Origin: an uncultured Gemmatimonadaceae bacterium
GTDB lineage: Bacteria > Gemmatimonadota > Gemmatimonadetes > Gemmatimonadales > GWC2-71-9
Reading direction: 5' to 3'
Length of the DNA: 44,696 nt
Assembly (NCBI GenBank): GCA_964608715.1
Contig: CAZSPH010000002.1
Coordinates: forward strand, 6,545-51,240
Below the pieces are notes generated by a model. The model did not search any database, was not told where the DNA came from, and saw nothing but the letters and a program-made list of their open reading frames with translations. Made by a program: the position numbers and the translations under genes. Shown one piece after another: positions 14,946 through 30,551 of the stretch (its first letter is position 1; the number at the start of each line of letters is the position of its first letter).

Positions 14946-14970
14946 CCGGTATTTCCTGGGAGAGCTGACT

Positions 14971-15336: not shown

Positions 15337-16829
15337 CCGACCAGCGGCGGGCGCGTTATCTGGCACTGTTCGCCGCCGAATCGCGGACCCTGCTGGCGGG
15401 CGCCCGCCGCTCGCTGCGTGACTGGGACGATGCCCCGGCAGATCCCGCCAACGGCGACGCCGTCTTCCGGGCATTGCACACCGTCAAGGGAATGGCAGCA
15501 TCGCTGGAGTTCCAGGACCTGGTTGAAGAGATCCACGCAGCCGAGACCGAACTGGCTGAACACCGCAGTGGCGCGTCGCTGGTATCAGCCGATTGGCTGG
15601 TTTCATTCGGCAGGATGCTGGACCGACTCTCGGTTGCAACTGAGAGTGCTGCCGGAACGGTTCCCGATGGCACGACATCGCGACCGGGCGCGACTACTCC
15701 CGTCGTGCGGGTCGACCTCTCCCGGCTCGACGCACTGCTCGACGAACTCGGTGGACTGGTGACTGCCAGGCAGGAGCTGGCCCGCCACGCTGCCGGCGAC
15801 CCCTTCCGTCCGGTTTCCCGTGCCGCGGTAGCGATGACCCGCCGGCTCGATGAGGTCCAGAACCGGATTCTGGACGTCCGCCTCGCTCCTCTCACCGAGA
15901 TCATGGAGCCGGTTCCGCCGATGGCCCGCGAACTGGCACGACACCTCGGCAAGGAGGTCACGGCAGAGATCACCGGTGACGAACTCGAAGTCGACCGGGG
16001 AATTCTTGCCGTTCTCCCTGATGCGATGATTCACCTGGTGCGGAACGCGATCGATCACGGTATCGAACCTCCCGGGGAGCGCCGTGCCGCAGGGAAGGGT
16101 GCGACCGGGCGGATCTCGATCCGGGCCCGACAGGATGGCGAGACGGTGGTCGTGACCATCTCCGATGACGGCCGGGGAATCGACCGGCGACGGGTGGCTG
16201 AAAGGGCGGTTGCTGCCGGGATACTTCAGTCCGGGGCAGAACTGGGCGATAACGATCTTCTGGGAGTACTCGCTCGGCCCGGTTTCTCGACTGCCGCTAC
16301 CGTTTCCGAGGTATCGGGGCGAGGGGTGGGCCTGGACACGGTGGTCGCAGGTCTGCACGGCGTAGGTGCTGCGCTGTCGCTCACCTCGGTGCCGGGACGC
16401 GGGTCGATCTTCACCATCCGGCTTCCGATGCGGGTCGGGATCGTGAAGGCGCTGGTGACGGGGATCGGGCCGGAACGGTACGTGATGCCGCTGACCCAGG
16501 TCAGTGAACTCGTAGCCTGGGATCCGGCCGCCGCACGGGTGGAAGGCGGTCGGACAGTGATGGATCTCCGCGGGGCCGATGTCCCGGTGGTGGATCTGCG
16601 ACGGCTGCTTCTCTTCCGGGGAGCGGCACCGCCGCCGCACCGTCCTGCGGTCGTCTGCGACATGCAGGGGCAGCGGATCGCCCTGATCGCCGACGAGATA
16701 GTCGGCCAGGTGGATGCCGTGGTGCAGGCGTTCGATCGACCTGCCGGACTGCCCCGGTGGGTGGGCGGTGCCACCGTACTCGATGACGGCAGACCGGCGC
16801 TGATGCTCGACCTGGCAGGTGTGATGTGA
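15333..16829 (+). CDS. cheA: CheA-type histidine kinase lacking a P2 domain (~498 aa)
   Basis: HPt motif FRALHTVKGMA, P3 (VRVDLSRLDALLDELGGLV), HATPase boxes HLVRNAIDHGIE / DDGRGID / GRGVGLD, and a C-terminal CheW-like P5. GTG 15333 overlaps the cheY stop (GTGA). Only ~25 aa link HPt to P3. Confidence 0.92.
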   Translation: MTDQRRARYLALFAAESRTLLAGARRSLRDWDDAPADPANGDAVFRALHTVKGMAASLEFQDLVEEIHAAETELAEHRSGASLVSADWLVSFGRMLDRLSVATESAAGTVPDGTTSRPGATTPVVRVDLSRLDALLDELGGLVTARQELARHAAGDPFRPVSRAAVAMTRRLDEVQNRILDVRLAPLTEIMEPVPPMARELARHLGKEVTAEITGDELEVDRGILAVLPDAMIHLVRNAIDHGIEPPGERRAAGKGATGRISIRARQDGETVVVTISDDGRGIDRRRVAERAVAAGILQSGAELGDNDLLGVLARPGFSTAATVSEVSGRGVGLDTVVAGLHGVGAALSLTSVPGRGSIFTIRLPMRVGIVKALVTGIGPERYVMPLTQVSELVAWDPAAARVEGGRTVMDLRGADVPVVDLRRLLLFRGAAPPPHRPAVVCDMQGQRIALIADEIVGQVDAVVQAFDRPAGLPRWVGGATVLDDGRPALMLDLAGVM

Positions 16830-16854
16830 CGCAAGAGAGAAAGGAGTTCTGCTC

Positions 16855-17481
16855 GTGACTGCTGTACTGAACGACCTCGATACGCTGAGACGCGATGGCC
16901 TGCGGGAGGTGGCCACGATTGGCGCCGGACATGCGGCCACCGCTCTCTCCCAGCTCACCGACCGGCGGATCATGATCTCGGTTCCGCAGGTGCGCCAGCT
17001 CGATTCCCGCTCGCTCCCGACAATGCTCTCCGGCTTCGGCGATCACGTCGCAGTCGTCAGCATGCGGATGCTGGGCGACCTCACCGGCCGGGCACTGCTG
17101 GTATTCAGCGAGCAGGATGCGGTGCGACTCTGTGATCTGATCCTCCGCCGTGTCCCCGGCCCGGTCAGGGCCCTGGGTGATCTCGAGCAGTCGGGGCTCA
17201 AGGAAGTGGGTAACATCGTCTGCTCCGCCTACCTCACCGCGCTCAGCAACTTCATGGGAATGATGCTCCTGCCGTCGGTTCCCGGACTGATGATCGGGCC
17301 GACCGGTCCGGCGGTGGAAAGCAGCCTGGATCCGGCCGACACCCCGGGCAACCTCGTCTTCTGTGTCGACACCGCGTTCCGGACTGACGGTGTTCCGGCG
17401 CAGCCGTTGACCGGAGCATTCCTGCTGATGCCGGACCGCGCATCGATCAGGGCAATCCTCGAGGCGATCAGGCTCGACTGA
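16855..17481 (+). CDS. cheC: CheC-family CheY-P phosphatase
   Basis: Two copies of the D/S-x3-E-x2-N-x22-P signature. The first is DGLREVAT..x22..P (Asn replaced by Thr). The second, SGLKEVGN..x22..P, is canonical. Confidence 0.85.
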   Translation: MTAVLNDLDTLRRDGLREVATIGAGHAATALSQLTDRRIMISVPQVRQLDSRSLPTMLSGFGDHVAVVSMRMLGDLTGRALLVFSEQDAVRLCDLILRRVPGPVRALGDLEQSGLKEVGNIVCSAYLTALSNFMGMMLLPSVPGLMIGPTGPAVESSLDPADTPGNLVFCVDTAFRTDGVPAQPLTGAFLLMPDRASIRAILEAIRLD

Positions 17482-17482
17482 G

Positions 17483-18619
17483 ATGGCCGACCGGGATGCC
17501 CTGGTCGGCGCACTTGCGGGTCGCTGTGATCCGGAACATGCCGCCACCCAGACCGGACTGGCCTGGTACGCCGGACGTCACGGTCACCAGCGCGTGGCAC
17601 TTGCTGCAGCGCGTGCTGCGGTCGCCGCAGCCGATCCTCCGGCGGCCGCCTGGACTGCGCTGGAGGCGCTGACCGCCGGCAGAACCGACCGTCTGGTACT
17701 TCCTGCGGACAGCGACACTGCTGCATCCGATCCCGAACCCCGCATTGCAGTCGCCGCCGGCGTCGAAGCTCACCGCCACGACGCATGGGTCGTGGCCGAG
17801 CTGTGCTACCGTGCCGCCATCGGCGACGACTGCTGCCGGGCCGCGGCAACTGCCAACCTGATGGCGCTCCACGAGCAGCGAGGTGAGGCGGCCCCCGCAG
17901 ATCGACTCTGGGAGACCGTCGCCGCTTCTCCCGGGTGGCATGCCCTTCACAATCGCGCTCTGGCCCTGGCGCGCCGGGGCAACGTCGGCGCTGCCAGAAG
18001 ACTGCTGGCCGGCCACCGCGATCCGGTGGTTGCCCACGCCGAACTCCTGTTCCTGGTCGGCTACCTGGCGCTGCTCGAAGGTGATGCCGCGGCCGGCCGT
18101 GTCGCGCTGGAGGCGGCGCTCTCCCGTGACGGGGCGCTTGCCAGGGCGCTGTTCGCGCTGGGCATCGCCTGCGATCAGCTCGACCGCCCGGGAGATGCCA
18201 TCAGCTCGATCCGCCGTGCTCTGGTCTCCTCACCATGGTTCGCTCCACAGGTATGGCTGCTGGCATTGCCGGATGGTGACGGCTGCGTCGAACAGCCTGC
18301 CTCGATCGTCGAGGGTGGAGTGGACGGTCCGACCGATCAGATTCTGCTGGCACTCGGACGGTCGCTGCTCTTCACCGGGCAGCAGGTGGAGGCGCTGGCG
18401 GTCTTCGACCAGGTGCTGCTGCGCAATCCCGATCATCCGGTCGCCCGGTATCACCGCGGGGTGGTACTCGCCAAGCTGCGCCGCTACGACGAGGCTCTGG
18501 GTGACTGGCAGCGGGTACGCGATGCCCTGCCGGGCGATGCGGAGCTGGCAGCGCTCGCTGCCCGCAGCGCGGCCTCGGCGGGACGGCTCGCCGAACTCTT
18601 CGCCGGTCCGGAGCGGTGA
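17483..18619 (+). CDS. TPR-repeat protein
   Basis: Ala/Leu-rich helical repeats with TPR-like periodicity (e.g. ALAVFDQVLLRNPDHPVARYHRGVVLAKLRRYDEALGDWQRV). The start lies 1 nt after the cheC stop. Confidence 0.7.
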   Translation: MADRDALVGALAGRCDPEHAATQTGLAWYAGRHGHQRVALAAARAAVAAADPPAAAWTALEALTAGRTDRLVLPADSDTAASDPEPRIAVAAGVEAHRHDAWVVAELCYRAAIGDDCCRAAATANLMALHEQRGEAAPADRLWETVAASPGWHALHNRALALARRGNVGAARRLLAGHRDPVVAHAELLFLVGYLALLEGDAAAGRVALEAALSRDGALARALFALGIACDQLDRPGDAISSIRRALVSSPWFAPQVWLLALPDGDGCVEQPASIVEGGVDGPTDQILLALGRSLLFTGQQVEALAVFDQVLLRNPDHPVARYHRGVVLAKLRRYDEALGDWQRVRDALPGDAELAALAARSAASAGRLAELFAGPER

Positions 18620-19527
18620 TGCACGGGCCTCTGCACGAGATAGGACTGGTCGAGGTCCTCCAGTTGCTGGAACGGGGAAGGCGCTCCGGTCGTCTCGTCG
18701 TAGTCGGTGGCCGTCACGACGAGCATCGAACGGTGGCGATCGACCGTGGCAGGATCGTCGATCTCCGCCCGCTCACCGAGGCGGATCTGCTGCTCCACCT
18801 CGCGATCCGGGCACTGGTACCTGCAGGGACGGTCCGTGCCTCTCCGGAACTGATGGCGATGGCGCGATGCGAGGTTGCAACCGCCGTTCTGCTGGACATG
18901 CTGACCTGGTCGGTCGGCCGGTTCGATTTCACGGCCGGCGAGGTTGAAGCCGGGCCACTGGACATCACTCCTTCGGGACTGATGATGCAACTGGTGGCAG
19001 GCGAATCGGCCCGGACCGAAACGGCTGAGGCTGTGGGCAGTTTTGCCGCGGTACCTCGTTTTGCTTCCGTCGCGGAGATTGCGGGCGGTACACCACTGAT
19101 GCTGGACAATCTCGACTGGCGGATTCTCGACCGGATCGATGGTCGTCGCGATATCGCCGCGCTCGCCCGTGAACTCATGGAGCCGGTCGAGTCGGTCGCC
19201 CGGCGGTCACTGCGGCTTGCTGCTGCCGCTATAATTCATCTCGACATGCCTGCCGGCGATTCCGTTGCCAGGGCCAGAGCGGTGCTCGATCAGGGCGATG
19301 CCGTGGCGGCCATCGGGATCCTGGCGGAACGGGTGGCTGCAGCCCCGGAGGATGGAGAGGCTTGGCGATGGCTCGGCTTTGCCGAATTGCGGATGGGCAG
19401 GATCGATCGGGCATCCGCTGCGTGGCGGGCCTGGGTGAACGCTTCCCCGGTCCACCATTTCGAAGCAGCGCCGCTGCTCGCCGCCGCCGAAACGATGATG
19501 GAAGCACTGCGAGGAGCCGGTGACTGA
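18616..19527 (+). CDS. DUF4388/PATAN-type N-domain protein with C-terminal TPR-like region
   Basis: N-terminus GPLHEIGLVEVLQLLERGRRSGRLVV ... GRFDFTAGE matches the DUF4388 pattern. Mid-region NLDWRILDRIDGRRDIAALAREL looks like a small winged-helix-like segment. GTGATG overlap with the upstream gene. Confidence 0.7.
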   Translation: MMHGPLHEIGLVEVLQLLERGRRSGRLVVVGGRHDEHRTVAIDRGRIVDLRPLTEADLLLHLAIRALVPAGTVRASPELMAMARCEVATAVLLDMLTWSVGRFDFTAGEVEAGPLDITPSGLMMQLVAGESARTETAEAVGSFAAVPRFASVAEIAGGTPLMLDNLDWRILDRIDGRRDIAALARELMEPVESVARRSLRLAAAAIIHLDMPAGDSVARARAVLDQGDAVAAIGILAERVAAAPEDGEAWRWLGFAELRMGRIDRASAAWRAWVNASPVHHFEAAPLLAAAETMMEALRGAGD

Positions 19528-20275
19528 TATCGCAGGTCCGTTGTCCGGCGCTGATCCGGAACCCGCCTTCCTGGAGCTGGGAGAGCGACTCCGTCAGCGC
19601 GGCCAGCTCGAGGCCGCGCTCAGCGTGGCGATTGCCGGAGTCACCCGCCACCCGCAGCTTGCCGCCGCTCACGATCTGGTCGGAAGGGTACGCGCCGATC
19701 AGGGCGACGATGCCAGTGCGCGCCAGGCCTGGCTTGCCGCGCTCGAATGCGAATCCGGTCATCCCGGCGCCCTCAAGGGACTCGCCTTTCTCGCCTTCCG
19801 CAATCACGACCTCGCCGAGGCTGAGCGACGCCTGGAGCAGGCGGTCCGCAGCAGTCCGGGGGATGCGGGAGTGGTCGGCGCACTCGATCGTGTCAGGGCA
19901 GCCCGGAATGCGGACAACGAAGTGGTCCGGATCGAGGATGGTGCCCACGGACTTCTGCTGGTCGATCGTGACGGATACCGACTCGTGGGAGATGCCAGGC
20001 TCGACCACGAAGACGATCGGTCGCCCGACCTTCTGGCCGCCGATGCGGCAGCGGCGGCCCGCGAAGCTGTCCGGCTCTCGCGGCTGCTGGAACTGGGAGA
20101 ATGGCAGTCGCTGGTGGTAGAGAGTCGACGGCAGCGGGCCGCAGTGGTACCGGTACGGCACGATGCGACACTGCTGCTCAGGCGCTCGCCGCTCGCCCCG
20201 GTCGGGCGGCTGATGGCGGTGGCCCGCCGCGCCGCCGTGGTCGCGGGCGAATGGATCGATCGGAACGTCGCATGA
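19520..20275 (+). CDS. TPR (N-terminal) - Roadblock/LC7 (C-terminal) fusion protein
   Basis: N-terminal TPR-like helices (RQRGQLEAALSVAIAGVTRHPQLAAAHDLVGRV...). The C-terminal ~110 aa show a Roadblock pattern (GLLLVDRDGYRLVG ... AAAAAREAVRLSRLLELGEWQSLVVESRRQRAAVVPV). Confidence 0.65.
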   Translation: MTDIAGPLSGADPEPAFLELGERLRQRGQLEAALSVAIAGVTRHPQLAAAHDLVGRVRADQGDDASARQAWLAALECESGHPGALKGLAFLAFRNHDLAEAERRLEQAVRSSPGDAGVVGALDRVRAARNADNEVVRIEDGAHGLLLVDRDGYRLVGDARLDHEDDRSPDLLAADAAAAAREAVRLSRLLELGEWQSLVVESRRQRAAVVPVRHDATLLLRRSPLAPVGRLMAVARRAAVVAGEWIDRNVA

Positions 20276-20610
20276 ACGGATGGTTGCCCAGACTCCGGAG
20301 CGCTGCCGGTGTGGCCGGAGTGCGCGCCGTCTTTCTCGTCTCCTCCGATGACGGCCTGATGGTGCAGGAGGTTTCCCGTGACGAGGCGGACGTCGCCGCC
20401 GCCGCTGCACTGGTCGCATCGCTGGTGCGTCGCTCTGCGACGCTCGCAGGCGACCCTCCCGATACCATCACCCTGGCCGCTACTTCAGGCACCGTGATCG
20501 CCGTCGACGCGGGGGACTCGCTCTGGCTGGCAGCCCTGGCCGCGCCGGGAGCCGAACTGGGGCGGCTGCGTCTGGTGCTCGGCGATCTCGCTGCCGGGAT
20601 CGACCGGTGA
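20272..20610 (+). CDS. Roadblock/LC7 domain protein (MglC/MglB-paralog-like, 112 aa)
   Basis: VAGVRAVFLVSSDDGLMVQEV ... AAAAALVASLVRRSATLAG ... ITLAATSGTVIAVDAGDSLWLAALA. ATGA overlap with the upstream gene. Confidence 0.7.
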   Translation: MNGWLPRLRSAAGVAGVRAVFLVSSDDGLMVQEVSRDEADVAAAAALVASLVRRSATLAGDPPDTITLAATSGTVIAVDAGDSLWLAALAAPGAELGRLRLVLGDLAAGIDR

Positions 20611-21071
20611 GAGTACTGCACGACTGGCTCGCCGCGCCGCTCGACGAACTGGTGCGCGAAACCGGTGCGCGCTTCGCACTGGTCACCGGCAGTTTCGGGC
20701 AGGTGATCGGACAGCACGGCTTCACCCGATCGCTCGACGTGATGGCTGCAGCATCGCTCGCGGCCGGCATCGTTGCCACCACGCGCGAAGTCGGCAGCAT
20801 GGTGGGATCCCCGGGAGGATTCGGAGCCATCGCTCATCAGGGCATCGGCCACGGCGTCTGGCTGGAACCCATCAGGTCGCCGCACGGTGACTGGATTCTC
20901 CTGGTCGCCTTCGGTGAGGAATCGACCGTCGGACTGGTCCGTCTCTTCTCGGAGCGATTCGTCCGGGCCATCTCGGCAGTGGGACCTCGTGGCGACAGCA
21001 GGGAACTCCTGGCCGAAGGGTTCGAGCGGGAACTGGACGCTTCTCTGCGTGCACTTTTCGAGGGCAACTGA
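20607..21071 (+). CDS. mglB: MglB-like Roadblock/LC7 protein (putative GTPase-activating partner)
   Basis: Aligns without large gaps to my recollection of M. xanthus MglB: FALVTGSFGQVIGQHG..LDVMAAASLAAGIVATTREVGSMVG...HQG..HGVWLEPI...ILLVAFGEESTVGLVRLFSERF...ELDASLRALF. Lies directly upstream of the MglA-like gene, as in mglBA. Confidence 0.75.
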   Translation: MRVLHDWLAAPLDELVRETGARFALVTGSFGQVIGQHGFTRSLDVMAAASLAAGIVATTREVGSMVGSPGGFGAIAHQGIGHGVWLEPIRSPHGDWILLVAFGEESTVGLVRLFSERFVRAISAVGPRGDSRELLAEGFERELDASLRALFEGN

Positions 21072-21072: not shown

Positions 21073-21672
21073 GTGGCCCGGGTCGATCACGGAGAAGGGA
21101 AGCTCTCGGCGACGCTGCTGGTGGTCGGATGTCGGGCCAGTGGCCGCAGCATGATGATGGAGGCTGTCAGGCGGCGCGTCTCCGCGCACCGGATCGTCGG
21201 CGGTGGTTCCGGTGATGACGCACCATTCGACTGGCTGGTGCTGGATCTCGGTCGGGTGGGTGGCTGGCAGGTTGCCGTCCGGCTGGTTGCCGTGCCGTCG
21301 CTGGCCGCGCAGTCCGACGTGCGCCGGACGTTGATCGGCGAAGCGGATGGAATCGTTCTGATTGTCGACTCGCTCGCGGGCCGGATAGACGACAATCTCG
21401 AGACCATCCGGCAGCTCCAGGAGGATCTGATCGCCGGCGGCGTCGACCCGCGCGAGATCCCGCAGGTCTACCTCTATTCCAAGCAGGACCTTCCCGGGGA
21501 TCTGATACTGCCGGTGGAGGCGCTCGACGCGACGCTGAATTTCCGCAGCGTTCCGAGTCGCGGCGGCGATCTGCTCCGGGGTACCGGTGTGGTGGAATCG
21601 GTACAGCGACTCGTCTCCATGGTAATGGGCCGGCACGCGACGACTCCCTCCCCGGACGGGTCGCAATGCTGA
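21073..21672 (+). CDS. MglA-like Ras-superfamily small GTPase fold with degenerate G1/G2/G3/G4 motifs (probable pseudo-GTPase)
   Basis: Collinear with MglA: LLVVGCRASGRS (vs VYYGPGLCGKT), PFDWLVL (vs FFDFLPL), AVPSL (vs TVPGQ), GIVLIVDS (vs GVVFVADS), YSKQDLP (vs YNKRDLP). GTG 21073 lies 1 nt after the mglB-like stop. Confidence 0.7.
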   Translation: MARVDHGEGKLSATLLVVGCRASGRSMMMEAVRRRVSAHRIVGGGSGDDAPFDWLVLDLGRVGGWQVAVRLVAVPSLAAQSDVRRTLIGEADGIVLIVDSLAGRIDDNLETIRQLQEDLIAGGVDPREIPQVYLYSKQDLPGDLILPVEALDATLNFRSVPSRGGDLLRGTGVVESVQRLVSMVMGRHATTPSPDGSQC

Positions 21673-23621
21673 ATGCCCACGCCACCTTCGATGCCTTCGT
21701 GGTCGGTTCGTCCAACCGGCTCGCGGTCACCGCATCGAAGGCCGTCGCCGAATCCCCCGGTGCTGCCTACAATCCGCTCTTCATCTACGCCCGTCCGGGA
21801 CTCGGCAAGACTCATCTCCTGATGGCGATCGGCCACGAGGCCAGGCGCGTCGATCAGGGGCGCACGATCGAGTATGTGACGGTGGACGACTTCGTCGAGG
21901 CCTACCAGGCAGCTCTCGCTGCCGGACAGGCCGAAGCCTACCGCCGGCGCTTCATCGGGGCGGATCTGGTGCTGATAGATGACGCCCAGTTGCTTGCCGA
22001 TCGGCGCGAACTTCAGTCCGAGCTGCTCCGCCTGATCGATCAGCTCATGGCTGCCGATCGACAGATAGTACTCGCCGGCGACCGGCCGCCCGAGGAAATC
22101 CAGCAGCTCGATGAACGGCTGATCCGGCGTTTCGGCGGCGGTCTGGTGATCGACATCGCTGCTCCCGACTACGAGACCAGGCTTGCCATTCTCGGTCGGC
22201 GGGCACGCGACCGGCATATCGATCTTCCGGCCGAGACGCTGGCCATGGTTGCGGAACTGCCGATCGGGACCGTGCGTGAACTGATCGGAGCGCTCAACCG
22301 GCTGGCTGCGCAGCAGGCCGTGCAGACCGAACGACTCGAGGTCGGGCAGGCGCGTCGTCTGCTCGAGGCGCTCGGTCACCGGGTTCCCGAGCAGAATGCC
22401 GGGAAGGTGCGTGCTGAAGCAGTGGCAGTGCCCGAAGTGACAGTGGAGCGGGATGAGTTCGGCGATTTCCTGAGTGATCTCACCGCCTCGGTTGCCCGCA
22501 GAGTCGACAGCTGGCGCCAGCGCATAACCGAGGCCTCGCTCCGCTGGTCGGCGGAGGGATTCAGGACCGGGCGACTCGATGCCGCACTGAGTGGCGATCT
22601 TCCCGATGATCCCGAGGAGATCCTGCAGGGATTCGAGCGGGATGTCGCGGCGCTGCGCGGCCTGCAGCAGGAACTCGCGGTGGCGGCACCGGAGCTTCTC
22701 TCCGAGGCACTGCTGTACGATCCCGATCGCCTGGCCAATGCGATCGAACTGGTTGCGGATGCGCGTGAGGCCGGAGCACCACCTCCCGGGCCGTCGCCCC
22801 GGTATCATCTCGACAGCTTTTCGGTGGGCGCCTCCACCCGATCGGCAGTCGCGGCAATCCACGCTGCCGCCGCTGCACCCGGCAGTCGCTACAATCCGGT
22901 GGTTCTGGTCGGCAGGAGTGGCGAAGGAAAGACCCACCTCCTTCACGCCTTCGGCCTGGCACTGCAGGAGCAGGGCCTCCGCCGCGTTGCGGTGATGGAT
23001 GGACGGACCTTCGTGGCCGATCTGGTGACCGCACTGGGCGACGGTACGGTAACCAGATGGCGGCATCGGCTGCGCCGGGTCGATGCCCTGCTGATCGACG
23101 ATGTCGACTCCCTCGCAGGCAAGGATCGCAGCCAGGAGGAACTGTACCTCCTCTACAACATCCTGGTCGAGTCGGGACGTCAGATGGCCTTCACCTGTTC
23201 GGTGCCGCCGGCCCAGCAGGCAGGACTCGAACCTCGTCTGGCCACCAGACTGGGCGCTGGTCTGGTCGTTTCGCTGGGCCCCCCGGATCGCGAGGCGCGG
23301 ATCACCGAGGTCGAGCGGTTGCTGGGAGATGCTGCACTCGATCCCGAACTGGTCGACTACCTGGCAGGGCGGCCCGCTGCGTCGATCCGCGAACTGCAGC
23401 AGCTCGTCAACCGCGTTGCCGCTGCCGCCGATGAACGGGGACTCCCTCTCTCGCTTGCTGTGGCTCGCCGGATACTCGAAGGGGCCACCGTTGCGGATCA
23501 GAGACCGCCCCGTCGCGGCAGCGGACTGGTCGCTCCGGGTGGCGGAGCACTCAGATCACGTGAGAAGATGATCGAGACCTGGCCCACTCCATCCGAACGG
23601 CTGATCGGGGAGTGGCGCTGA
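21666..23621 (+). CDS. tandem double DnaA/Hda-type AAA+ ATPase, no DnaA domain I/II or domain IV
   Basis: Module 1 (aa ~5-235): FDAFVVGSSNRLA, Walker A RPGLGKTHL, Walker B LVLIDDAQ, RLIRRFGGGL, TVRELIGALNRL. Module 2 (aa ~390-610): LDSFSVGASTRSA, GRSGEGKTHL, ALLIDDVDSLAGKDRSQEEL, RLATRLGAGL, SIRELQQLVNRV. A ~150-aa linker separates them, and no HTH-like C-terminus is seen. Confidence 0.8.
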   Translation: MLNAHATFDAFVVGSSNRLAVTASKAVAESPGAAYNPLFIYARPGLGKTHLLMAIGHEARRVDQGRTIEYVTVDDFVEAYQAALAAGQAEAYRRRFIGADLVLIDDAQLLADRRELQSELLRLIDQLMAADRQIVLAGDRPPEEIQQLDERLIRRFGGGLVIDIAAPDYETRLAILGRRARDRHIDLPAETLAMVAELPIGTVRELIGALNRLAAQQAVQTERLEVGQARRLLEALGHRVPEQNAGKVRAEAVAVPEVTVERDEFGDFLSDLTASVARRVDSWRQRITEASLRWSAEGFRTGRLDAALSGDLPDDPEEILQGFERDVAALRGLQQELAVAAPELLSEALLYDPDRLANAIELVADAREAGAPPPGPSPRYHLDSFSVGASTRSAVAAIHAAAAAPGSRYNPVVLVGRSGEGKTHLLHAFGLALQEQGLRRVAVMDGRTFVADLVTALGDGTVTRWRHRLRRVDALLIDDVDSLAGKDRSQEELYLLYNILVESGRQMAFTCSVPPAQQAGLEPRLATRLGAGLVVSLGPPDREARITEVERLLGDAALDPELVDYLAGRPAASIRELQQLVNRVAAAADERGLPLSLAVARRILEGATVADQRPPRRGSGLVAPGGGALRSREKMIETWPTPSERLIGEWR

Positions 23622-25237
23622 TGGCGATCAAGGGATCACTCCGTGAAGCATCACTTGCCGATGTAGTCCAGCTTCTGTTCCTCGGTCGCCGTACCGGCTG
23701 TCTGGCGGTGGCGGGTGATCGCAATTTCGGATCGATCTGGTTCGACGACGGCTGGATCGTTTTCGCCGGACTCGTCTCCCGCCAGGATCGACTCGGTGAG
23801 CGTCTGGTGTCGGCAGGGCGGCTGAACCGCAGCCAGCTCGAACAGGCCATTGCCGCGCAGCAGGCCGTTCCCGGCCGCAAGCTTGGTGCAGTGCTCCGCC
23901 AGCTCGACCTTCTGACGTCGACCGAACTCGATGCCGAGATCACCAGGCAGGTCGAGGAGACGATCTTCACTCTCTTCACCTGGACCGCGGGGACGTTCTC
24001 GTTCGAAGCTGACGTTCTTCCGGACGACCCCGAAGTGACGGTGAGGCTGAACCCTGAGGGACTGCTCCTCGAAGGTGCACGACGGGTCGACGAATGGAGC
24101 GTCATCGCGAAGAAGATCCCTTCGCTCGATGCCGTGTTCGCAATCGAAGGAGACGAGCGCAAGACCGGCGAGGCGCTCGGTCTGGTCGAAATGGAGCTGG
24201 CAGTATTTCCGCTGATCGACGGTCGCCGCACCGCGCGCGAGATTCAGGAGATCTGCGGCCTCACCGAATTCGAGATCAGCAGGGTGCTGTACGGACTCCT
24301 GTCGGCGGGACGGATCAGGCGGACTGCCACGGTCTCCCGGCAACAGGTACCCGGGGACGAAACCCGTCTGGCCGAACATCGCAATCTCGGCATTGCGTTC
24401 TATCGCAGCGGGATGCTGGGTGAGGCCGAGCGAGAGTTCCGTCGGGTCGCAGAGATCAGACCTCAGGATGCCGAGGCTCACTATCATCTCGGTTGCATAG
24501 CAGTGCAGTCGGGCCGCGCCGAAGCTGCGATCGATTCCTTCGAGTCGGCAGTCGTCGCCGGCGGGAGGAAGCCGGTGGTACTGCATGACCTGGCACTGGC
24601 GCTGGAAGTAGCGGGGCGCCTCGACGACGCGGCAGTGGTGCTGGCTGAAGCTGCCGAAGCGGGTCGCGGCGACCATCGGATCTGGATGGACTGGGGCCTC
24701 CTGGCACTGAGACGCAATGAGAGCAGCATTGCGCTCGACCGGCTGGCCCGTGCCCGCGAACTGATCGGAGATGGCGCTGCACCTGCCCGCTGGTACTGGG
24801 GCTGCGCCTGGGCCCAGGCATTGGGGGAGGCGTGGACCGATGCCGTTGCCACTGCCCGCGAGGGAGTCGCCGCACATCCCGCTCACGCCGTGCTCAGGTC
24901 CACTCTCGGCGTGCTGCTGGAGGCCACCGGAGAAGTGGGCGAAGCGGAGGCGCAACTGCGACACGCGCTGGGCGAGGACCCCACCATTCCGCAGATCAGC
25001 AAGAATCTGGGTGACCTGTTCTATCGCGCGGCGCGCTGGGACGAGGCCGAAGAGTCCTATCAGCGGACGGCGGCGCTGGCCCCCGATCTCGGCGACGATC
25101 TCTACTTCCGGCTCGGCAATCTCGCCTGCCGCCGGGGGGACCTGGCTGCGGCCCGTTCACACTGGGAGCGGGCCCTCACGATCAATCCTGAGCACGCACT
25201 CGCGCGTGCCAACCTCGCCGGGGCGGGGGGGCAATGA
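23612..25237 (+). CDS. DUF4388/PATAN-type N-domain + winged-helix-like segment + multi-TPR protein
   Basis: IKGSLREASLADVVQLLFLGRRTGCLAV ... GTFSFEAD (DUF4388 pattern), VFPLIDGRRTAREIQEICGLTEFEISRVLYGLLSAGRI, then >=6 TPR-like repeats. An alternative ATG lies at 23621 (TGATG overlap). Confidence 0.75.
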   Translation: MALMAIKGSLREASLADVVQLLFLGRRTGCLAVAGDRNFGSIWFDDGWIVFAGLVSRQDRLGERLVSAGRLNRSQLEQAIAAQQAVPGRKLGAVLRQLDLLTSTELDAEITRQVEETIFTLFTWTAGTFSFEADVLPDDPEVTVRLNPEGLLLEGARRVDEWSVIAKKIPSLDAVFAIEGDERKTGEALGLVEMELAVFPLIDGRRTAREIQEICGLTEFEISRVLYGLLSAGRIRRTATVSRQQVPGDETRLAEHRNLGIAFYRSGMLGEAEREFRRVAEIRPQDAEAHYHLGCIAVQSGRAEAAIDSFESAVVAGGRKPVVLHDLALALEVAGRLDDAAVVLAEAAEAGRGDHRIWMDWGLLALRRNESSIALDRLARARELIGDGAAPARWYWGCAWAQALGEAWTDAVATAREGVAAHPAHAVLRSTLGVLLEATGEVGEAEAQLRHALGEDPTIPQISKNLGDLFYRAARWDEAEESYQRTAALAPDLGDDLYFRLGNLACRRGDLAAARSHWERALTINPEHALARANLAGAGGQ

Positions 25238-26073
25238 AGATCGGAATCGAGCGGTTCGTCGCCGAGCACCGTCGACTGGTGGATCGCCTGGCCGGTCCGC
25301 TGCCACCGGAGGAACGGCAGGCGGTACGGCAGGAGATCATCGCACTCTTCCGTTCCACCGAGCAGGCAATCGAAGAACTGACCGGGTTCAAGGAAACGAT
25401 CCGCGATCTGGTCGAACGGTTCAAGGCCCTGCCGGATGAAGCCGCTGCCACGGCTTCCGTGGTGCATGATCATCTCGGTGCATCCACGATGCTGGAGCAG
25501 GGCTGGAGTGCGCTGGCCCGCGGCGAGTGGTCGGAGGCCGAGCGGCTGCTGGAGCAGGCGTTGCGGCTCGATCCGCATGCTCCGAATACCGAGGCACTGC
25601 TGGGCTGGGCGCTGATGCATCAGGGCAGGGGAGACGATGCGCTGCAGCACTGTCTCAGTGTTCTGCTCCGGGACCCCGGGAACGGTCTGGCCCGCACCGC
25701 AGTGGGAGCGATCTGCCTGCAGAAGGGAATCGCGGGGGAGGCGATCGAGCACCTCACCAGGGTGGTCCGGCACGGCGGCGATCCCAGAGCCGGGTTGTAT
25801 GCCCAGTACTGGCTGGGTGTCGCCTATCTCGAGCGCGATATGCCGCGTGATGCCATCGATGCGCTGCAGCGCGCGGTGTCCTCCGGCCCCAACCTCGCCG
25901 AGGCCTGGGCGGAACTCGGACGGGCGCTCTGGCGTTCCGGTCTGCATGAAGAGGCACGAACCGCCTGGAATCGGGGCAGTGCCATCCGCTTCTCGCCCTT
26001 TGCCGAACGGTCACGCGAGCTGCTCCAGATGACCGAGGCCGGAAGGATACCGCCACGCTCGCCACTTTCCTGA
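25234..26073 (+). CDS. coiled-coil + TPR-repeat protein
   Basis: TPR-like repeats (EAERLLEQALRLDPHAPNTEALLGWALMHQGRGDDALQHCLSVLLRDPGN...). ATGA overlap with the upstream gene. Confidence 0.7.
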   Translation: MKIGIERFVAEHRRLVDRLAGPLPPEERQAVRQEIIALFRSTEQAIEELTGFKETIRDLVERFKALPDEAAATASVVHDHLGASTMLEQGWSALARGEWSEAERLLEQALRLDPHAPNTEALLGWALMHQGRGDDALQHCLSVLLRDPGNGLARTAVGAICLQKGIAGEAIEHLTRVVRHGGDPRAGLYAQYWLGVAYLERDMPRDAIDALQRAVSSGPNLAEAWAELGRALWRSGLHEEARTAWNRGSAIRFSPFAERSRELLQMTEAGRIPPRSPLS

Positions 26074-26126: not shown

Positions 26127-27008
26127 GTGCAGGGAGTGGCAGTGGTTGCGCCGGAGAGATACCGGCAACTGGGTCGCTCGCTGGCCGAGATTGCCGCAGT
26201 GCCACGGGAGTGGACCGGCCTGGGGTGGACCGATCTGACTCCATTCACGCTGGTGATAGTTCCCGATGCCGCTGGAATGCAGCGCTGGTCCCGCGGCGCG
26301 CTCCCGGCATGGAGTGCCGGGGCGGCGTTGCCGGCGCGTCGGACGGTGGTGATCCGGGCTGATGCCGGCACGCCGTACCAGACGATGAGACACGAACTCG
26401 CTCATCTCGCTTTCCATTCCCGCATCGATCAGCGCGTTCCGCTGTGGTTCAGCGAGGGCTACGCCGTGCTGGCTGCCGGCGAGATGGGACGGCTGGCCTC
26501 TCTGCAGCTCAATCTGGCAGTCGCACTCGGCAGGGTGGGTTCACTCCGGACGGTGGACGCGGCGCTCAGGAGCGGGCCGAACGATGCCGCCGCCGCATAC
26601 GCGATGGCCGGGGCGGCGGTGGCTGAAGTGGCGAGAAGGAATCCCAGCGGGTCGCTGCTGCCCATTCTTTCCCGGATGGAGAGCGGCGAGTCGTTCCACG
26701 ACGCGCTGGTTGCCACTACCGGGTTCGATCCCGAGTCCTTCGACGAGGCCTGGGTACTGTCCACCAGGCGGAGCTACAGTCTTGGTCTCTGGCTGATTGC
26801 TGGCGGCGGGTGGCTGATTCTGGCACTGCTGCTGGGGGTCGGGGCCTCGCTCCGGAGGCGTCGCGACGTACCCCGCCGGCAGGCGCTGAACCATGGCTGG
26901 GACTTGCCGGCCGAAGAGCCGGAGGGGGAGTTCCCCGGGGCAGCCGGGCAGCCGCTCCCGACGGCTGAGCATGACGAAACACCCGCAGGCAGGATGACGG
27001 TTCGATGA
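26127..27008 (+). CDS. MA-clan (Peptidase_MA_2-like) zinc metallopeptidase with C-terminal TM anchor
   Basis: HELAH zinc motif followed by WFSEGYAVLAAGE (third-ligand Glu context), and a C-terminal TM LGLWLIAGGGWLILALLLGVGA followed by RRRRD. The start is uncertain. Confidence 0.7.
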   Translation: MQGVAVVAPERYRQLGRSLAEIAAVPREWTGLGWTDLTPFTLVIVPDAAGMQRWSRGALPAWSAGAALPARRTVVIRADAGTPYQTMRHELAHLAFHSRIDQRVPLWFSEGYAVLAAGEMGRLASLQLNLAVALGRVGSLRTVDAALRSGPNDAAAAYAMAGAAVAEVARRNPSGSLLPILSRMESGESFHDALVATTGFDPESFDEAWVLSTRRSYSLGLWLIAGGGWLILALLLGVGASLRRRRDVPRRQALNHGWDLPAEEPEGEFPGAAGQPLPTAEHDETPAGRMTVR

Positions 27009-27427: not shown

Positions 27428-29182
27428 ATGAAGCTTCGCATGGGTGTCCTGGCTGCCGTCGCGGCCCTGGTTGGAACGACCTCGACCATGGCAGCGCAGA
27501 TCCGTGCCGGTTCGTCGATCGGAAGGCAGCAGGTGAACAACGCGCCGATGATGCTCGTGGGCAATCCGATTCCGGCCAGCGCGCAGGATTCCTCGCTTGC
27601 CGTGGAACTGGGTTCGTCGCTGCGCGAGCGGATGGCCCGGATGGTCGGTCGCGACTACCAGATCGTCACCCGCGAGAGGATGAACGAGGCGCTGGATACC
27701 TACGGCTATCACGCTGACGCTCTGCTGCCGCCGTTCGAGGTCAGGCGCCTGATCCTCGCTGCGAACGGTACCCTCTACGTGCACGGTTCGCTCAGCCGCA
27801 ACGCTCAGGGCGGGATCATGCTGTCGCAGCGGTTCGCCAGCACCCGGTCGAGTGACGGCGCAGGCTACATCGCCAACACCGTTCAACAGAGCGGCGAATC
27901 ACTGGACCGCTTCGCCCAGCGTGCGGTCGACGCACTCAAGGATCCGGTCAAGGCGTACGCCGATGCCAGACAGTGCGTCGACAATGCCGCCACCGACAGG
28001 GCCAAGGCCCGTTCCGCTGCCGAGAAGGCGCTCAAGGCTGTGCCGAACTACGGCCTGGCGGAATTCTGCCTCGGAGCACTCGCGGTGGCCGACGATTCGG
28101 TCAGCGCGGCGGGCGAGACTCATTTCCGGAACGCCCTCAGGACCGATTCGATGGCGATCCCGGCCTACTCGGCTCTGGCGCTGATCAATTTCTATCGTTC
28201 CGACACCACCGGCACCGTGGGCGTCTGGCAGCAGGTGCTTCGGGTCGAGCCCCGCAACCAGCAGCTCCGCGATCAGGCCTTCGAGCTGTTCCGGCAGTTC
28301 GGCCGCCAGGACGCGGCCGAGGAGGTCGCCGATGAGGGGATCCGGCTGGATCCGAACAACTTTGACTGGTACGACCTGAAGAGCAACACCTGTCTCGCGC
28401 AGGAGAAGTTCACCTGCGCCCTCGAGGTGCTGGAGCAGGGCTTCTCGATGGACTCCACCCGCGCGGACACCGCCTTCTTCCGGAACATCTCCGCCGCGGC
28501 CCAGTTCGCCGGGGACAACGACAAGTTCGTGCACTGGGCCACCATCGGCGCCGAGCGATACCCGGATGATCGCGGCATGCTCTCCAGTGCCGCCCGCGCC
28601 AATGGCATTGCCGGCAATGTGGAGAAGGCCAAGGAGTATGCCGCCAAGCTGCTGGTGATCGATCCCGAGGACACGGAGCCGGTGCAGTTCGTGGTTGCAG
28701 CGATCAGCCAGATGACAGACGGCCCCGAGAAGATCGAAGCCACCCGGGAGCTGTGGTCGTTCAACGCGCAGGTGAGGGACAGCTACGACGACATGGCCAA
28801 GACCTACATGGCGCAGGCCTACGTCAATGCATCCAGCAATCTCTACAACGCTGCCGACTATGCCGGGAGCAGGGCGTTTGCCGATTCAGCGCTGGCGATG
28901 GGCATCGAGGATACCGAGCTGCTGAGCTATGCCGGATTCTTCTCGGCATTCTCGCAGATCTCCTCCGGAGCGTTCAACGAGGAGGCGACGGCGATCCGGG
29001 GCCAGGGGACGAGCTGCGCGGCCCTCGACGCATACGCCGCGAAGGTGGACGGAGAGATCGCTTCGCTCAAGCTGGCAACCCAGTCGAGCAACGCGCAGGT
29101 TGCCTCGATTGGAAGCGACACGCTTGCCAAGATGGAAGAAGAGCGGGCCCAGATACCGGTGCTCCGCCAGCGCTGCCGCTGA
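27428..29182 (+). CDS. secreted protein: signal peptide + TolB_N/LpoB-like N-domain + TPR-like helical repeats
   Basis: Signal peptide MKLRMGVLAAVAALVGTTSTMAAQ, GGAGG SD 7 nt upstream. The N-domain LGSSLRERMARMVGRDYQIVTRERMNEALDTYGY resembles periplasmic TolB_N-type domains. The rest is helical-repeat-like. Confidence 0.6.
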   Translation: MKLRMGVLAAVAALVGTTSTMAAQIRAGSSIGRQQVNNAPMMLVGNPIPASAQDSSLAVELGSSLRERMARMVGRDYQIVTRERMNEALDTYGYHADALLPPFEVRRLILAANGTLYVHGSLSRNAQGGIMLSQRFASTRSSDGAGYIANTVQQSGESLDRFAQRAVDALKDPVKAYADARQCVDNAATDRAKARSAAEKALKAVPNYGLAEFCLGALAVADDSVSAAGETHFRNALRTDSMAIPAYSALALINFYRSDTTGTVGVWQQVLRVEPRNQQLRDQAFELFRQFGRQDAAEEVADEGIRLDPNNFDWYDLKSNTCLAQEKFTCALEVLEQGFSMDSTRADTAFFRNISAAAQFAGDNDKFVHWATIGAERYPDDRGMLSSAARANGIAGNVEKAKEYAAKLLVIDPEDTEPVQFVVAAISQMTDGPEKIEATRELWSFNAQVRDSYDDMAKTYMAQAYVNASSNLYNAADYAGSRAFADSALAMGIEDTELLSYAGFFSAFSQISSGAFNEEATAIRGQGTSCAALDAYAAKVDGEIASLKLATQSSNAQVASIGSDTLAKMEEERAQIPVLRQRCR

Positions 29183-29202
29183 CCCCTTCCGCAGGACGAC
29201 CG

Positions 29203-29223
29203 GCCCCGATATATTTGGGGGCT
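29203..29223 (+). promoter_or_regulatory. second copy of the TATATTTG-containing 21-nt motif (GCCCCGATATATTTGGGGGCT); candidate tRNA-Asp promoter
   Basis: 18/21 identical to 8781-8801. TATATTTG ends 14 nt before the mature 5' end of tRNA-Asp. The flanks can also pair (CGGCCCC / GGGGCTG). Confidence 0.35.
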
Positions 29224-29231
29224 GGTCAGAG

Positions 29232-29305
29232 GGGGCTGTAGCTCAGCTGGTTAGAGTGCCGCACTGTCACTGCGGAGGTCGCGGGTTCGAGCCCCGTCAG
29301 CCCCG
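29232..29305 (+). tRNA. tRNA-Asp (anticodon GTC)
   Basis: Acceptor GGGGCTG/CAGCCCC, D-arm GCTC-AGCTGGTTA-GAGT, anticodon arm CCGCA-CTGTCAC-TGCGG, T-arm GCGGG-TTCGAGC-CCCGT, discriminator G. Confidence 0.9.
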
Positions 29306-29313
29306 TCGGTTCC

Positions 29314-29349
29314 CACCCCGCCCGGTTCGCCGCGCGGGGTGTTTCTTTT
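29314..29349 (+). terminator. intrinsic (rho-independent) terminator after tRNA-Asp
   Basis: Perfect 8-bp GC-rich stem CACCCCGC (29314-29321) / GCGGGGTG (29334-29341) with a 12-nt loop, followed directly by TTTCTTTT (29342-29349). Confidence 0.6.
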
Positions 29350-29356
29350 CCGGGTC

Positions 29357-30352
29357 ATGATGTCCGACACCGTTCCATCTCCATCTCACCTCCCCGTCCT
29401 GCTCGATGCCGTGGTTGCACTGGCAGCCGGATCGCGGCGGGCAGTGGACGCCACCCTCGGGCATGGCGGTCATGCCGCAGCACTCCGTGCCTGCGGAGCC
29501 ATGGTGCTGGGAATCGATCGGGACCCGGACGCGCTGGCCATAGCCCGGGCGCGGCTGGGGGACGAGGGAGTCACCTTCCTGGAGGCTGCGTTCTTCTCGC
29601 CCGAGGCGGCAGCGGCCGTCGCCACCTTCCGGCCCGACTTCATCCTGATGGACCTGGGTGTCTCCTCCCGTCAGCTCGATGACGAGACCCGCGGGTTCAC
29701 CTTCCGGCCCGGCGCCCCGCTCGACATGCGGATGGAAGGGGCAGGGATGTCCGCGGCCGACTGGCTGAACGAGGCCGATGCGGAGGAGCTTGCGGCGGCA
29801 CTCCGCAACTGGGGGGACGAACCACGGGCGCCGAGACTGGCGTCGGAGATCATCCGCCGTCGGCGTACGGTGCCATTCGCCACCAGCGATGATCTGGTGA
29901 ACGCGATCCGGGCGGTGCTGGGGCCTCGCAGTGGCCCCGGCGATTTCGCCCGGATCTTCCAGGCGGTCAGGATCGAGGTCAACGGTGAACTCGATGGGCT
30001 CCGTGAGGTCCTGCCCCGGTTCCGCGATGCCCTGGTGCCCGGTGGCCGGCTGGTGGTGATCAGCTATCATTCGGGTGAAGATCGTCTCGTCAAGCATGCA
30101 TTCCGCGAATGGAGCAGTGGGTGCGTCTGTCCCCCCCGTATACCCCGATGCATCTGCGGCGTCACCGCTTCCGGATCGCTGTACCCGCGCAAGGCCCTGA
30201 CTCCCGATGACGCCGAGATCGCAGCCAACCCGCGCGCGCGGAGCGCGAGGCTCCGTGGCTTCCGCTTGGCGGATGCAGCCCCGGGGGAGGTACCTGGTGG
30301 TGGCGTGGACGGCATTCTTCCTGGTGGTATTCGGGACCATCGCGGTGCGTGA
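29357..30352 (+). CDS. rsmH: 16S rRNA (cytosine1402-N4)-methyltransferase
   Basis: HLPVLLDAVV, DATLGHGGHA, LMDLGVSSRQLD, VISYHSGEDRLVK and NPRARSARLR. ATG 29357 was chosen because the 29339 start lies inside the terminator hairpin and T-tract. Confidence 0.92.
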   Translation: MMSDTVPSPSHLPVLLDAVVALAAGSRRAVDATLGHGGHAAALRACGAMVLGIDRDPDALAIARARLGDEGVTFLEAAFFSPEAAAAVATFRPDFILMDLGVSSRQLDDETRGFTFRPGAPLDMRMEGAGMSAADWLNEADAEELAAALRNWGDEPRAPRLASEIIRRRRTVPFATSDDLVNAIRAVLGPRSGPGDFARIFQAVRIEVNGELDGLREVLPRFRDALVPGGRLVVISYHSGEDRLVKHAFREWSSGCVCPPRIPRCICGVTASGSLYPRKALTPDDAEIAANPRARSARLRGFRLADAAPGEVPGGGVDGILPGGIRDHRGA

Positions 30353-30551
30353 CCGTCGTGCCTTTGCCGTGGCCCGTCGAGTGACTGCCCTCGAGGACTC
30401 GCTGAACGTGGTGGCGAGGATGCACGGTGATCTGGCCGCAGAGCTGGCGAATCTGCAGAGTCCCGGGGCGCTGACCGAACTCGGCGAACGTCTGGGATTG
30501 CGTCCCCCCAAGGACAGCGAACTTCTCACGGTCGTCGTGACGGGACCCTGA
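30297..30551 (+). CDS. ftsL: FtsL-like cell-division protein (single TM + coiled coil)
   Basis: The position between rsmH and ftsI fits FtsL. TM AWTAFFLVVFGTIAV is followed by a coiled-coil-like RRVTALEDSLNVVARMHGDLAAELANL. GTG 30297 follows GGGGGAGG by 6 nt. Alternative ATGs lie at 30207 and 30273. Overlaps the rsmH 3' end. Confidence 0.55.
   Translation: MVAWTAFFLVVFGTIAVRDRRAFAVARRVTALEDSLNVVARMHGDLAAELANLQSPGALTELGERLGLRPPKDSELLTVVVTGP

Follow-up and report, generated by a model that had tools for sequence, protein, structure and literature searches.

Outside mobile elements, domain III of DnaA is known as the engine that drives replication initiation in DnaA itself and the inactivation of DnaA in Hda, which consists of one module of about 230–250 amino acids (aa) and has an N-terminal clamp-binding motif. 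The origin recognition complex (ORC) and Cdc6 proteins are members of the same initiator clade of AAA+ ATPases, and the defining mark of the DnaA/Orc/Cdc6 clade is an initiator-specific insertion between strand 2 and strand 3. In this group as well as in clamp loaders, degenerate AAA+ subunits donate an arginine to a live neighbour, i.e., Orc4 to Orc1 and delta-prime to gamma. Here, a gene was analyzed that is located on a stretch of 44,696 nt (the window) from an uncultured Gemmatimonadaceae bacterium (assembly GCA_964608715.1, contig CAZSPH010000002.1, positions 6,545–51,240). The gene is found at 21666–23621 on the + strand, its stop-free translation comprises 651 aa and is 100% identical to an NCBI protein (P0001), and the protein was named DnaA2x. 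It was revealed that the DnaA engine is duplicated in one chain, is stripped of the DNA-recognition and helicase-recruiting domains, and has been kept across the phylum. DnaA2x appears to be an undescribed protein family that is found throughout Gemmatimonadota, and full-text literature searches did not yield any description of it. The favoured reading, to which a probability of about 0.5 was assigned, is that DnaA2x derives from DnaA, has no part in replication and serves as an ATP switch or scaffold in a signalling module for cell polarity and cyclic di-GMP (c-di-GMP).

A sequence-only reading of the window had predicted that the protein would match Bac_DnaA twice and would match neither DnaA_N nor Bac_DnaA_C, and this was exactly what a Pfam scan revealed. 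When the modules were scanned separately, Bac_DnaA (PF00308) matched aa 2–163 with 168.2 bits (E 2e-49) and aa 379–535 with 131.7 bits (E 4e-38), neither DnaA_N nor Bac_DnaA_C matched any part of the protein at E ≤ 10, and the linker and the C-terminal 80 residues had no Pfam match at all. Both modules are DnaA domains III including the lid. Module 1 comprises aa 1–238 (21666–22379, + strand like all parts of the gene) and is supported by Pfam, phmmer and Foldseek, module 2 comprises aa 379–606 (22800–23483) and is supported by Pfam, TIGR00362 and conservation. All motifs that had been quoted in the sequence-only reading were recovered in the translation, including the Walker A lysines K48 (codon 21807–21809) and K422 (22929–22931). 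The further key residues are the Walker B aspartates D105/D106, the box VII arginines R151/R155 and the sensor II arginine R204 in module 1, and D478/D479, R524/R528 and R583 in module 2. The two modules had been estimated by eye to be about one-third identical, and BLASTP gave 36% identity over 229 aa (E 2e-32). The identity of each module to canonical DnaAs, 30–41%, is similar to this value, and the pair may stem from an old internal duplication or from two separate captures.

The kinship to DnaA was evident in sequence as well as in fold. Module 1 matched domain III of Bacillus subtilis DnaA (8bv3) with a phmmer E-value of 7e-51, and Foldseek aligned the two with a TM-score (TM) of 0.94, a root mean square deviation (rmsd) of 1.6 Å and 41% identity. 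An AlphaFold2 model of DnaA2x was built on 42 homologues and had a mean predicted local distance difference test score (pLDDT) of 82. In its secondary structure a two-helix insertion is present in module 1 (helices 73–85 and 89–97, between strands 68–72 and 101–105) and in module 2 (helices 446–459 and 462–470, between strands 441–445 and 474–478), and this region aligns gap-free to the initiator-specific insertion of DnaA. Both modules thus share with DnaA the domain III fold, the two-helix insertion and, in the copies of the window, the full motif set, and they belong to the AAA+ initiator clade (DnaA/Orc/Cdc6/DnaC/IstB). The modules had been classified as DnaA/Hda-type, and only the first part of this name was upheld. 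On the DnaA model TIGR00362 they scored 254.6 bits (module 1) and 172.5 bits (module 2), in contrast to 85.7 and 87.1 bits on the Hda model TIGR03420 (cut-off 194.8). The scores were thus two to three times higher for DnaA than for Hda, and neither module reached the cut-off of the Hda models TIGR03420, NF005982 or NF006571. DnaA2x resembles Hda and HdaA in that it is a DnaA domain III paralogue without domain IV, and the arginine finger of Hda also acts on another AAA+ site; it differs from Hda in its scores and in its non-replication context.

The differences to DnaA are equally clear. DnaA2x has two modules per chain, it is devoid of domains I and II, which bind helicase and regulators, and it is devoid of domain IV, which binds DnaA boxes. 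Instead it has a new helical domain, a C-terminal motif and an operon of signalling proteins. Its N-terminus, MLNAHATFDAFV, is the beginning of domain III; the first residue of the protein is the first residue of this domain, and the alignment begins at residue 110 of B. subtilis DnaA. A clamp-binding motif (QL[SP]LPL-like) was not seen among the N-terminal residues or the conserved columns, as judged by eye. Type II AAA+ proteins (ClpA/B, p97, NSF) also have two AAA+ modules per chain, but they belong to a different clade, and Foldseek comparison of DnaA2x with p97/Cdc48 gave query-normalised TM values of only 0.23–0.29 and an rmsd above 19 Å.

DnaA2x has a large number of homologues, and every one with an organism name belongs to Gemmatimonadota. 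A protein database contained the identical NCBI entry and, in addition, full-length homologues in more than 120 clusters at 54–87% identity. When one genome per species was scanned, 26 loci emerged, all in metagenome-assembled genomes of Gemmatimonadota, and in an exhaustive profile search of 1.84 billion representatives the complete layout of module 1, linker domain, module 2 and tail was recovered in dozens of 50%-identity clusters. The canonical DnaAs that the profile search returned belong to other lineages. Searches that were seeded with a distant member yielded an orphan, which is 32–38% identical to all others, and a second large clade of proteins of 600–1000 aa that are named Longimicrobiales or Gemmatimonadota. 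The alignments comprised 292 close full-length homologues (type A, the clade of the window, down to 33% identity) and 119 distant full-length homologues (type B, the Longimicrobiales-type clade). The unusual architecture is all that speaks for an assembly or frameshift artefact, in which two adjacent DnaA/Hda-like genes were fused, a source of error that had been named in the sequence-only reading. Full-length homologues of 600–720 aa, in the second clade of up to about 1000 aa, recur in hundreds of independent assemblies, and they are encoded by single open reading frames (ORFs) in NCBI, JGI, ENA and Logan entries, including contigs of 1–4.6 Mb. In addition, the linker is conserved as a domain in its own right. 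Therefore, an artefact is excluded.

Several individual members deviated from the general picture. In the locus L022 (OY970263.1) the ORF of the tandem ATPase ends at 371 aa, although the similarity runs on, and the gene for its downstream partner (PATAN-TPR, see below) is frame-disrupted; in L025 and L026 the MglA-like gene looks frame-disrupted. These disruptions are more likely assembly indel errors than true pseudogenes. The locus L031 (GCA_003697105.1, 3765–12701; protein P0167) encodes a paralogous variant of 697 aa, the second module of which scores better on the profile of module 1. The variant is surrounded by two bactofilin genes, tsaD, gatC, gatA and a gene for an 867-aa protein of unknown function on one side and a gene for a 200-aa unknown protein on the other, and its locus does not contain a PATAN-TPR gene. 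Lastly, a protein of 673 aa from a 2.6-kb ENA contig (P0199) has two Bac_DnaA modules that are followed by a Bac_DnaA_C domain IV (84.8 bits). As judged from its sequence, it could be a tandem DnaA that has kept DNA binding or, given the short contig, a fusion artefact.

The two modules are connected by aa 239–378, which had been described as an acidic and helical linker of about 150 aa. The composition and the helicity were confirmed (27 D+E versus 15 K+R), but the region turned out to be more than a linker, as a conserved folded domain lies inside it. It begins with a low-complexity, disordered spacer (aa 239–262, 22380–22451; pLDDT <50), the length and sequence of which differ among homologues. 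The spacer is followed by a family-specific helical domain (aa 263–370, 22452–22775), of which about 105 aa are conserved in the homologue alignment with the consensus DEFxDFLSD...WRQR..EA.LR..GEGFRT.RL...DPDR, and by a connector with the sequence P-L-P-G-P-S-P-R-Y (aa 371–378, 22776–22799). When the helical domain was modelled alone with AlphaFold2, it was entirely helical with a pLDDT of 88. It had no Pfam match, the linker profile had no sequence match in the PDB, and a Foldseek search of the PDB gave no fold match (best E 3.5). A divergent domain IV in the C-terminus had been named as a finding that would speak against the unusual architecture. Domain IV was detected neither in the tail nor in the linker with Pfam, nor in the linker with the PDB profile or Foldseek, and a comparison of the linker with an alignment of DnaA domain IV using hhalign gave a probability of 0.9%. 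A domain IV hidden in the linker is therefore unsupported. In phmmer the alignment with Thermotoga maritima DnaA stretched weakly into the linker, and hhalign aligned a single stretch of 15 columns, QRITEASLRWSAEGF against KELTTHSLKDIGVAF, from which the RDHTTV recognition part is absent. At most, this stretch could be a vestige of domain IV.

The C-terminal tail (aa 607–651, 23484–23618) had been described as rich in Pro, Arg and Gly and as lacking the helix-turn-helix of domain IV. The composition of the last 46 aa was as described, and the pLDDT was below 50 for aa 608–635, but a near-invariant motif at the very end of the protein had been overlooked. It has the sequence R-S-R-E-K-M-I-E-T-W-P-x-x-x-E-R-L-x-x-E-W (aa 630–650, 23553–23615), and outside of the ATPase motifs few stretches of DnaA2x are as well conserved. 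Among the 292 type A homologues, E633 is present in 287, K634 in 286, W639 in 289 and P640 in 278; in type B, W639 is found in 119 and P640 in 117 of the 119 sequences. The motif has thus been kept in both clades in spite of a preceding spacer of very different length, and therefore it probably docks onto something that is also conserved in both.

In type B, the conservation of the catalytic residues differs considerably between the two modules. Module 1 is fully equipped, with K48, D105, R151, R155 and R204 in all 119 sequences and D106 in 118 of them. In module 2 of type B, by contrast, A, G or S stands in place of the Walker A lysine, the Walker B aspartates have become H/Y-G, and sensor II is lost; nevertheless both box VII arginines, R524 and R528, were kept in all 119 sequences. 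Therefore, the simplest role of module 2 in this clade would be to donate its finger to a live site, and the site that is always live is that of module 1. Both pockets are retained in most type A proteins, and conservation is higher for the pocket of module 1 together with the finger of module 2 (K48 in 292 of the 292 homologues, D105 in 291, R204 in 286, R528 in 279) than for the opposite combination (K422 and D478 in 286 each, R583 in 274, R155 in 250). This pattern suggests a composite ATP site that is built from the pocket of module 1 and the arginine finger of module 2. Module 2 of type B resembles degenerate ORC/Cdc6 and clamp loader subunits in that it has lost the pocket and kept the finger next to a catalytic module 1. 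However, in DnaA2x the partners are covalently linked in one bacterial chain, which lacks a winged-helix or any other DNA-binding domain. Type B could thus serve as a model of a covalent composite ATP site, similar to those of ORC and clamp loaders, in a bacterium.

The gene for DnaA2x is part of a tightly packed operon on the + strand of the window. An overlap of 7 nt exists between its ATG and the stop codon of the MglA-like gene upstream, and its TGA (23619–23621) overlaps the likely ATG (23621) of the next gene. The latter (ORF 23612–25237, + strand) encodes a protein with a PATAN domain (DUF4388, 113.7 bits) and TPRs, and it is followed by the gene for a TPR protein (25234–26073, +) and by the gene for a Peptidase_MA_2 zinc metallopeptidase (26127–27008, +) with a HELAH motif at aa 89 and a C-terminal transmembrane helix (aa 217–240). 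The PATAN-TPR gene was found directly downstream of the tandem ATPase gene in all loci except the variant L031, with stop and start codons overlapping or nearly abutting, and Peptidase_MA_2 is present in the loci of both clades. In all three loci of the Longimicrobiales type (L027, L034, L035) the order is rluD, DnaA2x, PATAN-TPR, MA-clan peptidase, within the arrangement yggS-divIVA-ileS-(lspA)-rluD, tandem ATPase, PATAN-TPR and Peptidase_MA_2. These loci are devoid of Che, Roadblock, GTPase and dcw (division and cell wall) genes. The same order was found in the Gemmatimonadales loci, where TPR or Che genes are inserted before the peptidase. The conserved core is thus the triad of ATPase, PATAN-TPR protein and peptidase, and the block of Che and MglA genes is an order-specific addition. 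That DnaA2x is embedded in a GTPase/Che operon, as had been read from the window, was correct for this locus, with CheY, CheA, CheC, PATAN, Roadblock and MglA-like genes lying upstream, but it cannot be generalized to the Longimicrobiales-type loci. DnaA2x is among the best conserved proteins of the operon (48–72% identity across loci, about 64–72% in close relatives), compared with 29–46% identity across loci for the MglA-like GTPase, and it persists in lineages that lack MglA or Che genes.

The PATAN-TPR protein is a candidate c-di-GMP receptor, as judged from its sequence. Two copies of an MshEN-type motif of 24 residues, RLGxx(L/V/I)(L/V/I)xxG(L/V/I)(L/V/I)xxxxLxxxLxxQ, are arranged in tandem at aa 60–113 (23789–23950), inside a helical insertion of the PATAN domain. 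Both copies are conserved in the aligned PATAN-TPR orthologues, except for the frame-disrupted copy of L022. The PATAN protein that is encoded upstream of DnaA2x (18616–19527) does not contain an MshEN-like motif, and no paper was found stating that PATAN insertions carry such a motif. MshE/PilB-type ATPases, which are regulated by an N-terminal c-di-GMP-binding MshEN domain, offer a parallel, because an MshEN-type motif is linked to an oligomeric ATPase there as well as here, by adjacency in the window and by fusion in another locus (L030, see below). However, DnaA2x is a DnaA-type AAA+ protein and not a secretion ATPase, and c-di-GMP binding by the PATAN-TPR protein is only predicted.

In other lineages, the profile search revealed fusions of DnaA modules to the same kinds of domains. 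The locus L030 (GCA_030620115.1, 2359–13973) contains three adjacent MshEN-Bac_DnaA genes for proteins of 983, 398 and 1990 aa, and two DnaA modules are present in the largest of these proteins. The three genes and a gene for an MshEN-only protein adjoin pilD, pilB, pilT, pilC and pilS, and therefore DnaA-type modules have become part of a type IV pilus locus in a different lineage. A C-terminal Bac_DnaA module was also seen in proteins of about 1360 aa, which are encoded in L029 (GCA_975957785.1, 1654–5760) and are represented by P0245 and P0253, a Pfam scan of P0243 showed a long TPR array ahead of the Bac_DnaA module, and P0236 and P0264 (1250–1350 aa) have an uncharacterised helical N-terminal region ahead of it. 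The MshEN-DnaA and TPR-DnaA fusions are links of the Rosetta-stone type, which support a functional partnership of DnaA2x and the PATAN-TPR protein. Together with DnaA2x they suggest that DnaA-type modules are a signalling or assembly device of wider use than has been appreciated.

According to the favoured reading, the two modules would be arranged head to tail, and module 2 would complement the ATP site of module 1 with its box VII arginine finger; in the clade of the window module 2 would, by its motifs, have a second live ATP site. The conformation or the oligomeric state of DnaA2x would be set by the binding and hydrolysis of ATP at the composite site. The fixed partners would be the translationally coupled PATAN-TPR protein and the membrane-anchored MA-clan metallopeptidase, and the C-terminal motif on its disordered tether could dock onto a partner domain. 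In Gemmatimonadales the triad has been combined with an MglA/Roadblock (MglB-like) polarity module and a CheY-CheA-CheC pathway directly upstream of the dcw cluster, and the output there would likely be control of cell polarity or of the division site. Several points weigh against this proposal. The AlphaFold2 model has a predicted TM-score (pTM) of only 0.49, and the relative position of the modules is not fixed in it. The TPR domain of the PATAN-TPR partner is the obvious candidate for docking of the tail, but this is only conjecture. The c-di-GMP input is also less than certain, because the PATAN-TPR protein scored 34.6 bits on NF053729 ("c-di-GMP_motif, MshE-related"), below the cut-off of 38, and the second motif copy of the window is slightly degenerate, with K for R and D for G. 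Furthermore, R155, the finger of module 1, is invariant in type B despite the dead pocket of module 2. Each chain thus has a "spare" finger that could act on a different molecule, with DnaA as one possibility. Lastly, most of the residues that contact single-stranded DNA (ssDNA) in B. subtilis DnaA are kept in module 2 of the window clade, which fits a role with DNA better than a pure scaffold.

The last two points lead to an alternative, which is judged unlikely but is the most serious competitor, namely that DnaA2x is a replication-coupled regulator. It would either join or cap DnaA-ATP oligomers and stimulate hydrolysis in an Hda-like manner, or it would bind ssDNA at the opened origin; by either route the replication state would be linked to the polarity and division machinery. 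Module 1 is 36–41% identical to canonical DnaA domains III, both box VII arginines are kept even beside a dead pocket, leaving the spare finger, and the locus adjoins divIVA-ileS-rluD and, in Gemmatimonadales, the dcw cluster. Residues V211, R227, K243 and R245 of Escherichia coli DnaA, which are taken here to be ssDNA-related, have equivalents in module 2 of the window clade. In module 1 the equivalents of V211 and R245 are replaced by H/Q and E, respectively. Module 2 of the same clade has also kept the equivalents of I190, I193, R202, K222, E223 and E228, which in B. subtilis DnaA contact the strand of the DnaA-trio in the origin-opening complex (PMC10721633). As proof of DNA binding this pattern is weakened, because the same residues are kept in the MshEN-fused DnaA modules of the pilus locus and in the TPR-fused ones and may thus be part of the module structure or of an oligomer interface, and because module 2 of type B has T and W at the equivalents of K222/K243 and R227. 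Against a regulator of replication also speak the missing domain I and domain IV, the lack of a visible N-terminal clamp-binding motif, Hda model scores below the cut-off, and the conserved neighbours, all of which are signalling or polarity proteins and none a replication gene. Furthermore, DnaA boxes are not in excess in the window. It had been noted that DnaA-box-like 9-mers were not seen near the gene, and indeed TTATCCACA with at most one mismatch was found only once in the window (28618), versus 2.06 matches expected by chance. A more far-reaching version, in which DnaA2x is a cell-cycle coupler unique to Gemmatimonadota that senses the origin or the DnaA-ATP state and signals to polarity and division genes, is regarded as still less probable. 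The covalent, ORC-like pair of DnaA modules would have kept the oligomerisation surface and, in module 2, the surface for ssDNA contact, and the PATAN-TPR partner, which would bind c-di-GMP, would relay the signal together with the MglA/Che module to cell polarity and to the adjacent dcw genes. If true, this would be the first replication-initiator ATPase module that has been rewired as a sensor between replication and polarity.

That DnaA2x is the chromosomal replication initiator of its genome, as annotations at JGI state, can practically be dismissed. The whole protein scored 425.5 bits on TIGR00362, above the cut-off of 343.9, and the JGI name "chromosomal replication initiator protein" for the homologues is a consequence of this summed score. 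However, only positions 104–339 of the 437 model positions were matched, and the cut-off was passed because two partial copies add up, as each half stays below it. Domain IV was found neither by profile nor by fold, and in the sequence covered, the window and flanks of ±10 kb around related loci, dnaN, recF and gyrB are not located near the gene. The view that two domain III modules without domains I, II and IV do not form an initiator architecture was thus borne out, and the public annotations of the family as an initiator are very probably wrong; at NCBI its members are named "DnaA/Hda family protein", "DnaA ATPase domain-containing protein" or "ATP-binding protein". Hardly more credit is given to an ATPase of a mobile element or a defence system, i.e., an IstB-like transposition helper or a STAND/defence NTPase. 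Pfam IstB_IS21 matched with 74 bits, NF038214 with 95.7 bits (cut-off 200), PADLOC mad8 with 38 bits, and faint nSTAND matches were seen, but these values lie far below the DnaA scores and reflect generic P-loop similarity. No transposase or defence genes are nearby, a transposase is also missing from the rest of the window, and the position between rluD and the PATAN-TPR gene is fixed across the phylum, which is the opposite of an island. The non-replicative switch or scaffold thus remains the favoured reading of DnaA2x.

The genes upstream of DnaA2x in the window form the order-specific block (14830–21071, + strand), which is syntenic in those of the loci L001–L026 that are long enough to cover it. 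It comprises genes for CheY (14830–15336), CheA (15210–16829), CheC (16855–17481), a TPR protein (17483–18619), the upstream PATAN-TPR copy mentioned above, a Roadblock protein to which N-terminal TPR repeats are fused (19520–20275), a second (20101–20610) and a third Roadblock protein (20607–21071), all on the + strand. The starts refer to the longest ORFs, and translation of CheY, CheA and the second Roadblock protein probably begins later. Three consecutive Roadblock/LC7 (MglB-like) genes are thus present at 19520–21071, and two were found in more distant loci. The block is followed by the gene for an MglA-derived small GTPase-like protein of 199 aa (21073–21672, +), which was identified by alignment with its orthologues. 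The combination of an MglA-derived GTPase, Roadblock/LC7, PATAN and CheA/CheY proteins resembles MglA/MglB and the Frz pathway, which form the polarity switch of Myxococcus xanthus. Occasional PATAN-MglA neighbourhoods have been reported in a survey of the Ras superfamily (PMC4316618); the term DnaA does not occur in that paper, and its mentions of AAA or ATPase concern other proteins.

The MglA-like protein of the window had no Pfam or NCBIfam match. Its P-loop reads GCRASGRS, with Arg instead of Lys, and AVPSL replaces TVPGQ, so that the catalytic Gln is lost. Most close orthologues retain GxxxxGK[ST], and the orthologues in L020, L021, L024 and L028 have the canonical MglA-type motifs GPGRSGKTT, TVPGQ and NKQD; the L028 orthologue matches Arf (PF00025) and small_GTP. 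The gene evolves much faster than its neighbours, and judging from these motifs its product may be a pseudo-GTPase in the lineage of the window.

The boundaries of the locus are also conserved. In the window the block is flanked by yggS-ileS-rluD on one side, with rluD (13514–14590, +) as the conserved upstream boundary, and by rsmH-ftsI-murE and further dcw genes on the other side, where rsmH and ftsI (29339–32521, +), the start of the dcw cluster, are the conserved downstream boundary in Gemmatimonadales. Order and boundaries of the block hold in every Gemmatimonadales locus that is long enough to show them, and they are the same in L028, L032 and L033, the members of which are 31–39% identical. 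Wherever a Gemmatimonadales locus is long enough for both boundaries, the signalling operon lies between rluD and rsmH. In the window a gene for a secreted TPR protein is located downstream of the peptidase gene, and the dcw cluster (29339–40070; rsmH, ftsI, murE, murF, mraY, murD, ftsW, murG) directly follows the operon. The gap of 157 nt before rsmH (29182–29339), the usual place of mraZ, fits no ORF. On the other side, ileS and rluD are separated by a gene (12711–13094, +) for a DksA/TraR-type C4 zinc-finger protein of 127 aa, and an ORF of 179 aa (13039–13578) overlaps this gene. In the Longimicrobiales-type locus L035 this place is taken by lspA (Peptidase_A8).

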